DNA of 47,872 bases from positions 1-47,872 of the forward strand of contig JBDSPC010000085.1 in NCBI GenBank assembly GCA_039914485.1, read 5' to 3'. A model generated the notes under the pieces. It was not told the DNA's origin. It did no database searches and worked only from the letters and a program-made list of their open reading frames with translations. Positions 27,514 to 34,057 of this stretch are shown piece by piece (positions within the stretch are counted from its first letter, which is position 1; each line of letters opens with the position of its first letter). Both the position numbers and the translations under genes were made by a program. Source of the DNA: Nocardioides sp. GTDB taxonomy: Bacteria > Actinomycetota > Actinomycetes > Propionibacteriales > Nocardioidaceae.

Positions 27514-29022
27514 ATGACGGTCGGGGGACGTGGAGTCGGAGTTCTTGTCGGTGTGCTGGTGGCCGCCTTCATGGCGGTGATGCCGCTCGCGGGCGCCCAG
27601 GCCGCAGGTGACCTGGTCGTGTGGCCGACAGCCGAGGAGATCAACCCGAAGGTGACGCCCTACCGGCTCACCATCAACGATCCCGAGGGCTTCGCCAACC
27701 TGGTCGCACGCTGGGACATCGACGACCAGGACTATCGCGAGCTCCTCCTGCCCCACGAGGGCACCGTCGATCTGCCGTTCGCCGAGACATTCGTGCACAA
27801 CCGCGACACCACCGTAAGGATCTTTCGCTGTGTCAACGCGACGTGGAGTGAAGAATCCTGTGTCCAGCTGGACTACAACTGGATCACGGTCTGGGTCGAG
27901 GCCGGACTTGCCTCCGGGGGGATCAGCAAGGCCGGGACCTCCCCCACAGAGTTCAGCTTCGAATACCGCCCGGTTGGTCTTGGCACGAGCACCTGGCGGC
28001 TGTTGGCCGCTGACGGGTCCGAGGTGCAGGCAGGCCAGACACCACTGGGACCGGGCGGGCAGCTGACGCTCGCAGTGCCACTCGGCACCCCGGAGCAGCT
28101 CGGCACGTTCGAGATCACTTCATCCCTCGACGGCACAGCGGTGGGTCACCTCGACGGTCGCTGGACCACGTCGGTCCAGCTCGACGGCGTTCCGCCACCG
28201 CCGCCCGTGTTGGCGGTGTCCGGCTCGGTCGTCTATCCGCACGAGGACGGCTACCTCGACACGGTCCGGGTGACGATGCAGACGCCAGGAGCTCGGACGG
28301 CAGTGCTCCGGGCCGTGGATCAGACCACCGGTGCCAGCCATGTCGTGGACGAGCAGGTTTCGGAGCGGTCCGCGACGTTCAACTTCGACGGGCTGACCAA
28401 CAGAGGACACAAGCTGCCTGCGGCGATCTACCGACTGGAGGCCACGTCGTACGACGCCGCCGGAGAGACCAGCTCATCGAGCGAGCCGATCGAGGTGCGC
28501 TGGGACGAGCTGCGGATGGTCACCTGGAGACACACGATTCCGGCCGCCAAGACCGTGATCAAGAAGTACACAGGTCCGTGCGGAACCCTGAGCAAGCCCG
28601 CCGAACCGGGCTGGCGCGGATCGCTCGGCTACTACAGCGGAACCTGCCGCGATCCTGACAAGGCGTTCGTCCAAGTGATCCACGGACTCAACCTCCCGCC
28701 GAGCTTCCACGACAAGTACGCCGCCCTCCGCGTCTCGCTGACCGGTGGCCCGAACAAGAGGCGACCGGGTTCCTACCTGGTGCTCGGCTACTTCACCGAC
28801 GCCAAGAAGTGGGCGTTCGAGAACCGCCGGGTGTTCCGGGGGCGCGGGATCCAGACGCACAAGGGCGACTCCGCGTCGCGGCAGACGATGAAGTTCATCC
28901 ACGACGACGGCAAGGGTCCGTACGTCGCGTGGAGCACCGGCCTCAGCCAGGGCAGCCGCTACGACGTGAAGAGCTTCACGGTGACGATCAGGTATCAAGC
29001 CCTGGTGCCCGGAAGCAAGTAG
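27514..29022 (+). CDS. Secreted hypothetical protein, probably with Ig-like/beta-rich domains
   Basis: Signal peptide ending AQA; YPHEDGYLD and FDGLTNRGHKLPAAIYRL recall FlgD-Ig-like segments; TAGGCT-N6-ATG. Confidence 0.7.
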   Translation: MTVGGRGVGVLVGVLVAAFMAVMPLAGAQAAGDLVVWPTAEEINPKVTPYRLTINDPEGFANLVARWDIDDQDYRELLLPHEGTVDLPFAETFVHNRDTTVRIFRCVNATWSEESCVQLDYNWITVWVEAGLASGGISKAGTSPTEFSFEYRPVGLGTSTWRLLAADGSEVQAGQTPLGPGGQLTLAVPLGTPEQLGTFEITSSLDGTAVGHLDGRWTTSVQLDGVPPPPPVLAVSGSVVYPHEDGYLDTVRVTMQTPGARTAVLRAVDQTTGASHVVDEQVSERSATFNFDGLTNRGHKLPAAIYRLEATSYDAAGETSSSSEPIEVRWDELRMVTWRHTIPAAKTVIKKYTGPCGTLSKPAEPGWRGSLGYYSGTCRDPDKAFVQVIHGLNLPPSFHDKYAALRVSLTGGPNKRRPGSYLVLGYFTDAKKWAFENRRVFRGRGIQTHKGDSASRQTMKFIHDDGKGPYVAWSTGLSQGSRYDVKSFTVTIRYQALVPGSK

Positions 29023-29069
29023 CGCCCGGCACGCAATCAGGTTGCGGCGTACGGGAGAATGATCCGGTT

Positions 29070-32000
29070 GTGCAGATCTCCTACCCGCCCGCCCTGCCGG
29101 TCTCCGCGCGCCGTGACGACATCGCGGCCGCTATTCGCGACCACCAGGTCGTCATCATCGCCGGCGAGACCGGCTCGGGCAAGACCACCCAGCTGCCGAA
29201 GATCTGCCTCGAGCTCGGTCGAGGTGCGGACGGCAAGCTGATCGGCCACACCCAGCCTCGACGCATCGCCGCCCGCTCCGTCGCCGAGCGGATCGCCGAG
29301 GAGCTCGGCACCGAGCTGGGGGACCTGGTGGGCTACCAGGTGCGGTTCACCGACCGCACGTCTCGCCAGTCGCGGGTCAAGCTGATGACCGACGGCATCC
29401 TGTTGGCCGAGCTGCAGCGCGATCGCCAGCTGCGCAAGTACGACACGATCATCATCGACGAGGCGCACGAGCGCTCGCTCAACATCGACTTCCTGCTCGG
29501 CTACCTCAAGCGGCTGCTGCCGCGCCGGCCCGACCTCAAGCTCATCATCACCAGCGCGACCATCGACGTCGACCGGTTCGCCGAGCACTTCACGGCGCCC
29601 ATCGTCGAGGTGACGGGCCGGACCTTCCCGGTCGAGGTCCGCTACCGCCCGCTGCTCGAGCTGCCGGAGGACGATGAGGAGGGCGAGCCGATCCAGCGCG
29701 ACCAGACCGAGGCGATCATCGCCGCAGTCCGCGAGCTCTCGGCCGAGGGGCCGGGCGACGTGCTGGTCTTCCTGCCCGGTGAGCGCGAGATCCGCGACAC
29801 CGCCGATGCCCTCGACGCGCTCAAGAGCGACCGGCTCGAGGTCGTCCCGCTCTACTCCCGGCTGTCCGCCGCCGAGCAACACCGCGTCTTCTCCAGCCAC
29901 AACATGTCCGTACGCCGCATCGTGCTCGCCACCAACGTGGCCGAGACATCGCTGACCGTGCCGGGGATCCGCTACGTCATCGACACCGGCGTCGCCCGGA
30001 TCTCGCGCTACTCGCTGCGGACCAAGGTGCAGCGGCTGCCGATCGAGCCGATCAGCCAGGCGTCGGCCAACCAGCGCTCCGGCCGGTGTGGTCGCGTCGA
30101 GGCGGGCATCGCGATCCGGCTCTACGCCGAGGAGGACTTCGAGGGGCGCGCGGAGTTCACCGACCCGGAGATCCTGCGCACCAACCTGGCCAGCGTCATC
30201 CTGCAGATGACCTCCCTCGGGCTCGGCGACATCGGCCGCTTCCCGTTCGTCGAGCCGCCCGACAAGCGCAACATCAAGGCCGGCATCGAGCTGCTGGAAG
30301 AGCTGGGAGCCCTTGGCCCGGCGGTTGAGGAGCGCGCGCAGCGCGCGTCACGAAACCCCGGGCCAACCCCCGGTTTCGTGACAGGACTTCGTCCTTCCTC
30401 AACCTCCGATGGAGCCCCCACGCTCACCAAGCTCGGCCGTCGTCTCGCCCGCCTCCCCATCGACCCGCGACTGGGCCGGATGATCCTCGAGGCCGAGCGC
30501 CTCGGCTGCGTGCGCGAGGTGATCGTCATCGCGGCCGCGCTCAGCCTCCAGGACCCGCGCGAGCGCCCCGCCGAGCTGCAGGCGCAGTCCGACCAGCAGC
30601 ACGCCCGCTTCAAGGACGAGACGTCCGACTTCCTCACCTGGCTCAACCTCTGGCGCCACATCAAGGAGCAGCAGCGCGAGCTGAGCTCCAGCGCCTTCCG
30701 GCGCATGTGCAAGCGCGAGTTCCTCAACTACCTTCGGGTGCGCGAGTGGCAGGACTTCGAGTCCCAGCTGCGGCAGGTCTGCAAGGAGATGAAGATCGAT
30801 CTCGGCCAGCCCGCCGATCTTCCCGACGGCGACGGCATCCACCAGGCCCTGCTCTCCGGACTGCTCAGCCACATCGGCGCGCTCGAGGAACGCCCGCAGG
30901 CGCGAGCAGGCGAGCGCAAGCCGATGCGGGAGTACGTCGGTGCGCGCGGCGCGCGCTTCGCGATCTTCCCGGGGAGTGTGCTCAAGGGCCGCAACCCGGC
31001 CTTCGTGATGGCCGGCGAGCTCGTCGAGACCAGCCGACTCTGGGGGCGGCAGAACGCCGCGATCAAGCCCGAGTGGGCCGAGAAGCTGGCCGGCCCGCTG
31101 GCCAGGCGCAGCTATTCCGAGCCGCACTGGTCGGCCAAGCGCGTGGCGGTGATGGCCTACGAGAAGGTCACGCTCTACGGCGTACCCCTCGTCGCGGACC
31201 GCCTCATCACCTTCGGCAAGGTCGACCCGGAGCTCTCGCGCGAGCTCTTCATCCGGCATGCGCTGGTGCAGGGGGAGTGGCGCACACGGCACGACTTCTT
31301 CCACACCAACCGCGAGCTTCTCGACGAGGCCGAGGAGCTCGAGCACCGCGCCCGCCGGCGCGACATCGTGGTCGACGAGGAGACGCTCTTCGACTTCTAC
31401 GACGCGCGCGTCGGGGCCGAGGTCGTCAGCGGTGCCCACTTCGACCAGTGGTGGAAGCGCGAGCGCAACAAGCGGCCCCACCTGTTGACGTTCGACCCGG
31501 AGATGCTCACGCACGCGGGCGCCGACCAGGTCCGCGCGACCGACTTCCCGACCAGCTGGCGCGACTCCGACGAGGTCGGCCTGACCTTCCCGATCAGCTA
31601 CCACTTCGAGCCCGGCCACGCCGACGACGGCCTGACCATCGAGGTGCCGGTGGCCACCCTCAACCGGGTCGATGCGACCGACTTCTCCTGGCTGGTGCCG
31701 GGCCTGCGTGAGGAGCTCGTCACCGAGCTGATCCGCAGCCTGCCCAAGAACCTCCGGGTCAACTTCGTGCCGGCTCCCAACAAGGCGCGCGAGTTCCTTG
31801 CCGCCGTTCCGGCCGGGGCCGAGCCGCTCCTCGACGCGCTGGAGCGCTACCTCGTCGGCCAGACCGGGATCGTCGTCCCGCGCGAGGCCTGGGACTGGGC
31901 CAAGGTCCCTGGCCACCTGCAGCCGACCTTCCGGGTCGTCGACGAGGACGGTGGCGAGGCCGCGCGCGGCAAGGACCTGGAGTCGTTGAAGGCGCCGCTG

Positions 32001-32909
32001 CGACCCAGCCTCGAGCAGGCGATCGCCGACGTGGCCGCCGACTCGGGCGTGTCCGCGACCGGCCAGAGGTCCTGGACGTTCGGCACGATCGAGGAGTCCT
32101 TCACCCAGCTGCGCGCGGGCCACGAGGTGCGCGGCTTCCCCGCGCTCGTCGACGAGGGCAGCACGGTCGGCCTGCAGGTGTGTCCGTCCGCCGCCGAGGC
32201 TGCGGCACGCCACCGCTTGGGCGTACGCCGCCTCCTGCTGCTCGCCCTCGGCGAATCACCCACGGTGGACCAGCTGGGGCTCGACCAGTTCAGCCTGCTC
32301 GCGCTCGTCGGTTCGCCGTACCCCACCGTCGGCGAGCTGGTGGACGACGTCCGCGCCGCGGTGGTCGGCGACCTCGTCGACGCGCGGCCTCCTGCGCGGG
32401 ACCAGGCGGCGTACGACACCCTCCTGACCGAGGCGAAGCGCGACCACACGGCCGCGGTCATCGCGGCGATCCACGACGTGATCAAGGTGCTGGGCGCGTG
32501 GCGGGCCACCGACAAGGAGCTGTCCGGGCGGGCCGAGCTGATGACGCTGCCGGCGCTCACCGACATGAAGACCCAGGTGACGCGGCTGATGACCCGAGGC
32601 TTCATCGGGGAGGCGGGAGCCGCGCAGCTCCGCGAGTTCGCGCGCTACCTGGCGGCCGTGCAGCACCGCCGGGCCCGACTCGACGAGCAGGTCGCGCGCG
32701 ACCGGCAGCTCATGGACCAGATGGCCGACCTGCAGGACGCGTGGCTGCACCAGGTCGCGGCCCTGCCGCCGGGTCGGCCGCCGAGCGCGGGGCTGCGGGC
32801 GGTGCGCTGGCTGCTGGAGGAATACCGCGTGTCCCTGTGGGCGCAGCAGCTCGGCACCAAGGGCTCGGTCAGCGACCAGCGGATCCGCAAGGCCCTGTCA
32901 GCTGGATAG
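29070..32909 (+). CDS. hrpA: ATP-dependent RNA helicase HrpA
   Basis: GETGSGKTTQLPK, TQPRRIAA, DEAH, SAT, TNVAETSLT, QRSGRCGR, C-terminal WLLEEYRVSLWAQ; start GTG 29070. Confidence 0.96.
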   Translation: MQISYPPALPVSARRDDIAAAIRDHQVVIIAGETGSGKTTQLPKICLELGRGADGKLIGHTQPRRIAARSVAERIAEELGTELGDLVGYQVRFTDRTSRQSRVKLMTDGILLAELQRDRQLRKYDTIIIDEAHERSLNIDFLLGYLKRLLPRRPDLKLIITSATIDVDRFAEHFTAPIVEVTGRTFPVEVRYRPLLELPEDDEEGEPIQRDQTEAIIAAVRELSAEGPGDVLVFLPGEREIRDTADALDALKSDRLEVVPLYSRLSAAEQHRVFSSHNMSVRRIVLATNVAETSLTVPGIRYVIDTGVARISRYSLRTKVQRLPIEPISQASANQRSGRCGRVEAGIAIRLYAEEDFEGRAEFTDPEILRTNLASVILQMTSLGLGDIGRFPFVEPPDKRNIKAGIELLEELGALGPAVEERAQRASRNPGPTPGFVTGLRPSSTSDGAPTLTKLGRRLARLPIDPRLGRMILEAERLGCVREVIVIAAALSLQDPRERPAELQAQSDQQHARFKDETSDFLTWLNLWRHIKEQQRELSSSAFRRMCKREFLNYLRVREWQDFESQLRQVCKEMKIDLGQPADLPDGDGIHQALLSGLLSHIGALEERPQARAGERKPMREYVGARGARFAIFPGSVLKGRNPAFVMAGELVETSRLWGRQNAAIKPEWAEKLAGPLARRSYSEPHWSAKRVAVMAYEKVTLYGVPLVADRLITFGKVDPELSRELFIRHALVQGEWRTRHDFFHTNRELLDEAEELEHRARRRDIVVDEETLFDFYDARVGAEVVSGAHFDQWWKRERNKRPHLLTFDPEMLTHAGADQVRATDFPTSWRDSDEVGLTFPISYHFEPGHADDGLTIEVPVATLNRVDATDFSWLVPGLREELVTELIRSLPKNLRVNFVPAPNKAREFLAAVPAGAEPLLDALERYLVGQTGIVVPREAWDWAKVPGHLQPTFRVVDEDGGEAARGKDLESLKAPLRPSLEQAIADVAADSGVSATGQRSWTFGTIEESFTQLRAGHEVRGFPALVDEGSTVGLQVCPSAAEAAARHRLGVRRLLLLALGESPTVDQLGLDQFSLLALVGSPYPTVGELVDDVRAAVVGDLVDARPPARDQAAYDTLLTEAKRDHTAAVIAAIHDVIKVLGAWRATDKELSGRAELMTLPALTDMKTQVTRLMTRGFIGEAGAAQLREFARYLAAVQHRRARLDEQVARDRQLMDQMADLQDAWLHQVAALPPGRPPSAGLRAVRWLLEEYRVSLWAQQLGTKGSVSDQRIRKALSAG
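30323..30404. repeat. REP-doublet palindromic element inserted in frame within hrpA
   Basis: GGTTGAGGA-[GCGCGC GCA GCGCGC]-GTCACGAAACC, spacer, GGTTTCGTGAC-[AGGAC TTC GTCCT]-TCCTCAACC. Confidence 0.8.
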
Positions 32910-32918
32910 AAGAGTTGT

Positions 32919-33009
32919 GGAGCACGCCGCACCGGGAGCGCCTCACGGCGCGTGGCCGCTCGTAGCGGCTTAAGTTGGGACCCGGGGCTGCCGCGATGCG
33001 GCGTGCTCC
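32919..33009 (-). ncRNA. Candidate structured small RNA (about 91 nt), family not recognised
   Basis: Perfect 13-bp closing stem, inner CCGGG/CCCGG helix, hairpins GCCGCT-ACG-AGCGGC and GCGCC-GTGA-GGCGC; TAGACT -10 box 7 nt upstream (33022-33017). Confidence 0.65.
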
Positions 33010-33036
33010 GAGGGAGAGTCTACGTCGTGATTCGGC

Positions 33037-33639
33037 TCAGGCCAGCGATTCGCGGAGCTCGAGGTGGCCGGCCGCCTCGAGCTGCTCGGAGAGCGTGAGC
33101 ATCCTCACGGTCGACTCGTGGTTGGTGCCGGTCTGGGCCGCCCTTCCGGTGGCCACGACGCGGGCGAACGCCGCGGCTCGGAGCAGGGTGATCGCGAAGT
33201 CGCCGACGATGCCGCGCAGCACGTCGTCGATCATCGACTTCACCTCGTCGGGTCCCGGCGGGTCGGCCACACCGGCGACCACGCGCGCGACCTGGGCGCC
33301 GGCCAGCCCGGCGTCGTACTCCGCAGCGACCTCGACGGGCGAGCGGTGCACCCAGGCGCGCAGGACGTAGAGCCGCCACAGGCAGCCCGCGAGGGTGTCG
33401 GCCGGGGCACCCGACCAGACCTCCGCGAGGGTCTCGAGGCCCTCGGTGTCGGCGAGGTGCAGCACCCGCTCGACCAGGTCGTGGTCGTCCGCACCCTGCG
33501 CTCCGCGCACCAGCAGGGTGGCCGCGAGATCGCCGGCCTCGCGGACCGCGGCGGGGTCGGCGCCACCAGTGAGGTCCTCGAAGAAGGACGCACCCGGGAC
33601 ACGAGGTCGGTGGTGGCGCGGGGCGTCGGAGTCGGCCAT
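33037..33639 (-). CDS. Hypothetical helical protein (200 aa) upstream of the candidate ncRNA
   Basis: Strong codon bias; EVWSGAPADTLAGCLWRLYVLRAWV, DDVLRG..GDFAITLLRAAAFARV; no catalytic motif recognised. Confidence 0.8.
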   Translation of the reverse strand: MADSDAPRHHRPRVPGASFFEDLTGGADPAAVREAGDLAATLLVRGAQGADDHDLVERVLHLADTEGLETLAEVWSGAPADTLAGCLWRLYVLRAWVHRSPVEVAAEYDAGLAGAQVARVVAGVADPPGPDEVKSMIDDVLRGIVGDFAITLLRAAAFARVVATGRAAQTGTNHESTVRMLTLSEQLEAAGHLELRESLA

Positions 33640-33676
33640 CCGTCCACTCTATGAGCCCACTCCTATGCTCGGCGCC

Positions 33677-34057
33677 ATGGCCGACTCCTATGCACCCGAG
33701 ATCGACGGCGAACCCGATCCCGGGGAGGTCGTCTGGGCGTGGGTGGCCTACGAGGACGACCCCGCCCAAGGCAAGGACCGGCCCGTGCTGGTGCTGCGCG
33801 CCGTGGAGGACGGGTGGGTCGGGCTCTACTTCACGAGCAAGGACCACGACCGTGATGCGGCCGACGAGGCGACGTACGGCCGCTTCTGGATGGACGTCGG
33901 CAGCGGCGGCTGGGACTCCCAGGGCCGCCCGAGCGAGGTCCGCCTGGATCGGCTCGTCCCGCTGACGCGTGATGGCGTACGCCGCGAGGGAGCCGCCCTC
34001 GATCCCGTCGTGTTCGCCCGGGTGGTCGAGGCCGCGGCCCGTCACGCCGGGTCGTGA
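33677..34057 (+). CDS. PemK/MazF-like family protein
   Basis: YAPEIDGEPDPGEVVWAWVAYEDDPAQGKDRPVLV, TSKDH, WDSQGRPSEVRLDR, VRREGA; TATGCT-N7-ATG. Confidence 0.82.
   Translation: MADSYAPEIDGEPDPGEVVWAWVAYEDDPAQGKDRPVLVLRAVEDGWVGLYFTSKDHDRDAADEATYGRFWMDVGSGGWDSQGRPSEVRLDRLVPLTRDGVRREGAALDPVVFARVVEAAARHAGS

Follow-up and report, generated by a model that had tools for sequence, protein, structure and literature searches.

The closest described relatives of the RNA analysed here are three small RNAs of Streptomyces that were published as unrelated orphans. The first, scr0792 of S. coelicolor, is reported in the accessible text of its source to be enriched 712-fold on stationary-phase RNA polymerase, with no strong enrichment on HrdB, to give a northern band of ~85 nt and, in its authors' proposal, to form a complex with transcription factors; the same text concludes on only two RNA-polymerase-associated RNAs in S. 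coelicolor, scr3559 and scr0792 (PMC11077062). The second, scr2952, lies on the forward strand between SCO2951 (malate oxidoreductase) and SCO2952 (helicase) and is given, in the available parts of three reports, a class I start at 3208717 and a length of 92 nt that extends to 138 nt (PMC3765725, PMC4895711, PMC4681348); one S. coelicolor list of transcription start sites, as far as it is accessible, holds no start at scr2952 (PMC4895711). The third is sRNA #12 of S. ambofaciens (95 nt; PMC8388888 Table S3).

We analysed a stretch of 47,872 nt from a Nocardioides sp. genome (GCA_039914485.1, contig JBDSPC010000085.1; hereafter the window), in which an earlier note, made from the sequence alone, had placed an independently transcribed structured small RNA. 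That proposal is now supported by conservation, covariation, a promoter of its own, inversion relative to neighbouring genes and the published expression of Streptomyces homologues, and we regard it as virtually certain that the element is a real small RNA of the scr0792/scr2952 family. The novelty expected of it stands in part: the RNA lies outside Rfam, where a model search with the window RNA returned zero matches at E up to 10, and a full-text literature search found no description of the RNA family, but it is not wholly unseen, given the three published Streptomyces members.

Structure and conservation of the RNA

The RNA occupies positions 32919-33009 of the minus strand as a 91-nt three-way junction, which we term the short form (type I). 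Re-reading 33009-32919 bore out the sequence, coordinates and strand of the earlier note, together with its -10 hexamer TAGACT (33017-33022, minus strand), which lies 7 nt ahead of the first stem base, G33009. The parallel that had been drawn between this spacing and leaderless starts in the window was compared at one other site: TAGAGT (33646-33651, minus strand), the likely leaderless promoter of a 200-aa open reading frame (ORF; 33037-33639, minus strand), lies 6 nt ahead of the ATG at 33639. The RNA begins 27 nt past the stop codon of this ORF, whose nearest relatives are from Nocardioides and whose product (family A, below) is predicted to be all-helical and is a candidate partner. A gene for an HrpA-type helicase (28809-32909, plus strand) converges on the RNA and ends 10 nt short of its 3' end. 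A PemK/MazF-like ORF (33677-34054, plus strand; PF02452, E 4e-7) diverges from the 200-aa ORF, and N-termini resembling that of its product come after the RNA in four Nocardioides loci (L034, L035, L041 and L043).

The window RNA has a minimum free energy of -56.3 kcal/mol (z -4.8; equalled by 0 of 200 shuffles) and no U tract of its own. A check for dispersed copies found it once in the assembly, which is 85% complete. In one of three soil runs, six short assembled RNA contigs cover the core of the window RNA only and are silent on start, strand and level. At one Streptomyces locus (L271), contigs from two RNA runs (X16, X19) pile on or end near the element with start, strand and level not readable; the poly-T end of an RNA contig there agrees with the strand. 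Neither the soil-run contigs nor those at L271 were counted as evidence.

The fold was assessed in 74 distinct sequences, in a model-fitted alignment that is biased toward the predicted pairs. In this set, 93.4% of predicted-pair cells pair, compared with 32-45% in slid controls, two-sided changes occur at 23 of the 29 predicted pairs, and the top 13 mutual-information pairs are all predicted ones. Among the inner pairs, G-U cells outnumber A-C cells by 89 to 4, which fixes the strand assignment and bears out the minus-strand reading. The RNA is a three-way junction whose closing stem covaries freely and whose core is nearly invariant. From the 5' end it runs through the closing stem P1, a CCCCGGG-YYYCA strand followed by a variable linker, the P2 hairpin with its NNCGA loop, four bases, the P3 hairpin with its GNGA loop, and back into P1.

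In the window, where all these elements read on the minus strand, the 5' strand of P1 (32988-33009) forms a closing stem with two bulges, and all 20 of its pairs change two-sidedly across the alignment, as does its partner strand (32919-32938) in covariation with it. The 13-bp Watson-Crick closing stem anticipated from the single sequence is thereby confirmed; its 5' bulge segment, GCGGC, for which the earlier note had raised an alternative pairing with GCCGC, is variable and covaries instead with the 3' strand, and the stem extends via GG and AG to stack onto the GNRA hairpin. That hairpin, P3 (CGCC-GUGA-GGCG, 32939-32950), is contiguous with the P1 3' strand, is 99.3% paired and was likewise upheld by covariation. 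P2 (GCCGC-UACGA-GCGGC, 32955-32969) is paired in 100% of cells, with a C-G/U-A swap in 28 of the 74 sequences; the hairpin exists as predicted, but the column profile gives it 5 bp and a 5-nt NNCGA loop in place of the 6 bp and ACG loop first drawn. A further 5-bp helix, CCGGG/CCCGG, is not supported, as it shows 0 compensatory changes and its 76.7% pairing equals the shuffle mean. The junction strand to which it was assigned (CCCCGGG-UCCCA, 32976-32987) is near-invariant and mostly unpaired in the folding ensemble, and no covarying partner or pseudoknot for CCCCGGG was found among the strongest mutual-information pairs of the 74 sequences. An A/U-rich variable linker (32970-32975), with a top-letter frequency averaging 0.49, joins this strand to P2.

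Conservation is distributed very unevenly over this fold. At least 97% conservation is reached by 6 of 7 tract columns, 8 of 10 P2 stem columns and 7 of 8 P3 stem columns, and by zero columns of P1; the core is conserved in its stems as well as its loops, and P1 and the linker are spared. From the free variation of P1 around a conserved core we infer that the folded core binds something. Where the junction strand does vary, as CCCCGGG, CCCCCGG or CCCTGGG, each variant keeps a self-pairing core. The window RNA shows every feature that defines the family: a closing stem, CCCC(G/C)GG-NYYCA, a GC-based P2 and a CGCC-GNGA-GGCG hairpin.

Distribution, genomic setting and promoters

Among 54 Nocardioides-type loci fetched by means of the ORF (two of them from one assembly), the RNA follows the 200-aa ORF in 53, the remaining locus stopping at the ORF, and ten more distant loci all carry it. 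In two loci (L062, L064) the RNA is inverted relative to the ORF and retains its own TANNNT, which excludes it as terminator or 3' UTR of that ORF. In another (L007) it lies 570 nt away. The genes downstream, and their direction, differ between loci, the downstream sequence is dissimilar in most, and the HrpA-type helicase is not a conserved neighbour. The view that the element is too elaborate for a terminator has held, since it is a 91-nt junction without a U tract and many homologues have a separate terminator hairpin behind the RNA; an intrinsic terminator, for which the short hairpin and U tract are absent, was rejected, as was a riboswitch or 5' leader, for which no constant same-direction downstream gene class was found.

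Models built from 22 and 75 sequences matched 89 and 97 of 151 Actinomycetes genomes, respectively (98 when pooled). A long-form model added nine further genomes, counted on score (62-110 bits), bringing the total to 107 of 151; this model (R3) has some pairs misplaced by one or two columns, which reduces sensitivity. Five unpublished genomes (G405, G427, G429, G433, G440) are counted in the 151 and were excluded from alignments. In a phylum-wide draw, 9 of 151 genomes matched, every one in the class of the window, and the RNA was not found in ~140 genomes of other classes by model search with strict filters. Of 101 genomes from a Mycobacterium-like family, 53 yielded a match. Streptomyces-like genomes carry it between a UvrD-type helicase and a malic enzyme (45 of 47 malic-enzyme loci); two of 54 Streptomyces loci (L271, L272) hold it in the reverse orientation, and one of these has a 434-nt gap as in scr2952. 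Rfam returned no match for Streptomyces, Mycobacterium-like or long-form copies, and a 12-kb region of one genome (G069) lacks a copy.

Individual loci show further features. Six copies (L074, L075, L076, L082, L085, L086) have an additional 5' hairpin (CCCT-TCGG/CCGG-GG) between the -10 box and P1, and their RNAs are therefore probably ~20 nt longer. One copy (L144:1524-1633) contains a single 16-nt internal duplication of the linker and the P2 5' arm. In three Mycobacterium-like loci (L131, L133, L134) the RNA comes after a WhiB-family gene and beside a double HTH regulator, and in two loci of one family (L146, L147) smpB-like and tmRNA genes flank it. Two contigs from a viral collection (L067, L068) also carry the RNA; the second holds a family A gene and a host-type gene pair and is probably host DNA.

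TANNNT lies 25-30 nt upstream of the C tract in all 53 Nocardioides-type loci. Elsewhere a different signal, GGAAY-N17-19-GTT, stands upstream of 28 of 74 short-form copies, 15 of 18 in the long-form alignment, which includes two short forms, and 36 of 40 Streptomyces copies. It precedes 2 of 49 metagenome copies and none of the 53 Nocardioides-type ones, and occurs in <0.2% of shuffles and 0 times on the opposite strand. SigH and SigE use the same consensus as SigR. That consensus, in the accessible text of its source, is GGAAT-N18-19-GTT (PMC9205884), and on this resemblance the upstream motif in many copies fits a SigR/SigH-type promoter, Nocardioides excepted. At the level of the family, then, sequence evidence points to a promoter of its own and an orientation independent of neighbours.

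Streptomyces relatives and neighbouring protein families

Besides the short form there is a long form of 110-125 nt in which P2 is extended; Streptomyces carries it in addition to the short form, and other families carry it alone. Its P2 has an internal loop, GGA-AUAC/GGAGCC (L297:1501-1617, L328, L338, L329-L337, L339-L341); one genome (G512) holds four copies, and at one locus (L206) long and short forms stand in tandem. The short-form model detects the long form, and the long-form model detects the window RNA at E 2.7e-7. The letters in the published scr0792 figure and both northern probes match long-form loci, one probe at 25 of 25 positions in L328, so by sequence match S. coelicolor scr0792 is the long form of this family. 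An alternative identity of the long form, scr5239, was ruled out by the lack of a match.

The forward orientation of scr2952 corresponds to the inverted layout of L271 and L272 and is opposite to that of most genomes; by position, size and orientation scr2952 is likely the short form. In the portion of its source available to us, S. ambofaciens sRNA #12 agrees with the short form in both sequence and strand (PMC8388888 Table S3). The family thus joins three published orphans, and the Streptomyces short forms are, according to published reports, expressed as discrete RNAs. One paper lists an Rfam entry for scr2952; a matching model was not found, the six accessions checked belonging to other families. 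The motif may also be catalogued in the supplements of an S. avermitilis survey that, in its accessible text, reports 55 high-ranking and 10 small RNA candidates (PMC11109978).

Two protein families accompany the RNA. Family A, that of the 200-aa ORF, occurs in 37 of the 151 genomes and family B (~118 aa) in 31, a weak match in G524 being excluded. They are never found in one genome, where ~11 co-occurrences would be expected under independence, a figure to be read with the relatedness of the genomes, which are not independent. A gap of at most 2.5 kb separates family A from the RNA in 25 of 37 genomes, and family B from it, in either direction, in 29 of 31 (24 of 34 and 27 of 29 without the five unpublished genomes). 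The RNA is carried by 67 of the 68 genomes with A or B, the exception having B at a contig end; among the 44 genomes in which the RNA was not found, 1 encodes either protein. Conversely, 32 of 98 RNA-positive genomes, Streptomyces-like and Mycobacterium-like, have neither, and both were absent from the five Streptomyces genomes searched.

Pfam and NCBIfam scans placed family A in no family, and family scans and structure searches found no similarity to transcription proteins; a UniRef label, 'DNA-directed RNA polymerase subunit beta', was set aside as unsupported by family or fold scans. Foldseek gave its predicted fold no match under E 0.001, the best VIA score was Z 7.4, among helical bundles, no relative of solved structure was found, and the Atlas returned its own clusters only. 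Family B has no Pfam family above cut-off. Its profile reaches sigma region 4 at E 5e-4 and its predicted fold does so at a best E of 3e-3; the single scores are weak and concordant, the entire list of fold matches being sigma region 4. In its modelled four-helix fold, family B looks like a stand-alone sigma region-4 domain. Its members (L298-L325) have an acidic stretch at the expected DNA-reading helix and an Arg-rich tail, and the protein could serve as an anti-anti-sigma factor. WhiB proteins bind sigma region 4, in structures that appear in the family B fold-match list. Families A and B both start with an Arg/Pro-rich peptide, and their alignment covers 23 N-terminal columns at a probability of 8.8%.

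Possible roles and comparison with known RNAs

Given the reported co-purification of scr0792 with RNA polymerase, the RNA likely acts on the transcription machinery, and we give an even chance to the proposal that the ~91-nt junction RNA is an RNA-polymerase-associated RNA-protein regulator, probably together with the 200-aa protein. The invariant core would form the binding surface, with P1 merely closing the fold and shielding its ends, and the folded, protein-binding RNA would associate with the polymerase, probably with the 200-aa protein as its bridge or companion. The cofactor would be family A in the host of the window and the putative stand-alone sigma region-4 domain of family B in other lineages, contact being made perhaps via their Arg/Pro-rich N-terminal peptides. 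Under stress, a sigma factor of the SigR/SigH type would switch the RNA on in many lineages, and in Nocardioides a housekeeping-type promoter would drive it instead.

Several observations weigh against this reading. Enrichment in RIP is not proof of direct binding, and polymerase could be bound by the P2 extension that the long form has and the window RNA lacks. The accessible text of the RIP-seq paper names only scr0792 and scr3559, and not scr2952, which counts against polymerase binding by the short form (PMC11077062). The synteny with A and B may be inherited without function, their co-occurrence with the RNA being counted among kin, and a third of RNA-positive genomes (32 of 98) have neither protein; the similarity between A and B is confined to those 23 columns. 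The ECF-type promoter is missing from the Nocardioides-type loci (0 of 53) and nearly so from metagenome copies (2 of 49), and the scr2952 start is absent from the accessible part of one list (PMC4895711).

It is unlikely, though by no means negligible, that the RNA instead acts in trans by base pairing, its C-rich strand (CCCCGGG-YYYCA, often with UCCC, CUCC or CCUC) binding G-rich ribosome-binding regions. Precedents for such pairing are 6C RNA and the staphylococcal UCCC small RNAs. The conserved strand, largely unpaired in the ensemble and without a covarying partner, would suit this role, as would the RNA's own promoter and frequent terminator hairpin, but P2 and P3 are equally invariant in their stems and loops, which a seed would not require. 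A crude test also speaks against it, complements of the conserved 12-mer numbering 59 in the genome against a shuffled median of 118, as does the polymerase association reported for the family member scr0792 in the available text (PMC11077062). We also hold it unlikely that the RNA forms a complex with family A that acts away from polymerase, which would be bound by the long form alone. The tight linkage of the RNA to A and B, the unlikeness of A to transcription proteins in family and structure scans, and the silence of the accessible RIP-seq text on scr2952 (PMC11077062) accord with this idea, but it sits poorly with an invariant core common to both forms and with the sigma region-4 resemblance of family B.

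An RNA that self-associates or binds a small ligand is very improbable: the self-complementary CCCGGG/CCGG, whose pairing core survives in every junction-strand variant, may drive dimers, but self-duplex energies mostly fall within those of shuffles (five true junction strands gave fractions of 0.06-0.2, and one gave 0.003). That the RNA is a cis element of the 200-aa gene (terminator, 3' UTR) or a riboswitch leader is hardly credible, for despite its place just past the stop codon and its missing U tract, it is inverted with its own TANNNT at L062 and L064 and reversed at two of the 54 Streptomyces loci, lies far from the ORF at L007, precedes genes of varying kind and direction and has a class I start in scr2952, as given in the accessible reports.

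If the RNA-polymerase reading is followed further, the family would be a third class-wide kind of polymerase-regulating RNA beside 6S and Ms1, a compact junction RNA that, paired with interchangeable cofactors (A or B), would reset how Actinomycetes deploy their polymerase or sigma factors, with stress control of the SigR/SigH type in many lineages; we put this forward tentatively, as a speculation somewhat more likely to fail than to hold. What is gained is that scr0792, until now an unexplained and apparently lone polymerase ligand, acquires a family in ~70% of sampled Actinomycetes, a covariation-backed fold, two forms coexisting in Streptomyces, a putative stress-sigma promoter and two candidate cofactors, and that the unannotated families A and B receive a first functional hypothesis.

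Among known classes, the small SRP RNA (RF00169) was set aside, the genome's own SRP RNA sitting on a different contig, and ARAGORN predicts no tRNA or tmRNA in the window; together with the empty Rfam search this agrees with the first reading of the element as not a tRNA, SRP, tmRNA or 6C RNA. 6C RNA resembles the family in being actinomycete-wide with an exposed C-rich tract, but has two C-rich hairpin loops in the accessible description (PMC8388888) where the window RNA has one C/G junction strand; the hallmark of two hairpins with loops of at least six C is absent from the window RNA, whose loops are NNCGA and GNGA and which has no Rfam match. 6S and Ms1, too, stand alone as structured RNAs that associate with RNA polymerase, an analogy that runs via scr0792; they are rods of 160-300 nt with a central bubble, whereas the window RNA is a compact 91-nt junction that matches no Rfam family, and the shortest 6S is about twice its size. 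Within the family, polymerase enrichment is reported for scr0792 alone, which the accessible text presents as a single Streptomyces RNA with a minimum-free-energy fold and not as one of a family (PMC11077062). Its P2 is ~25 nt longer and has an internal loop, whereas that of the window RNA has 5 bp and a 5-nt loop; the closing stem, the CCCCGGG-YYYCA strand and the CGCC-GAGA-GGCG hairpin of scr0792 are like those of the window RNA.
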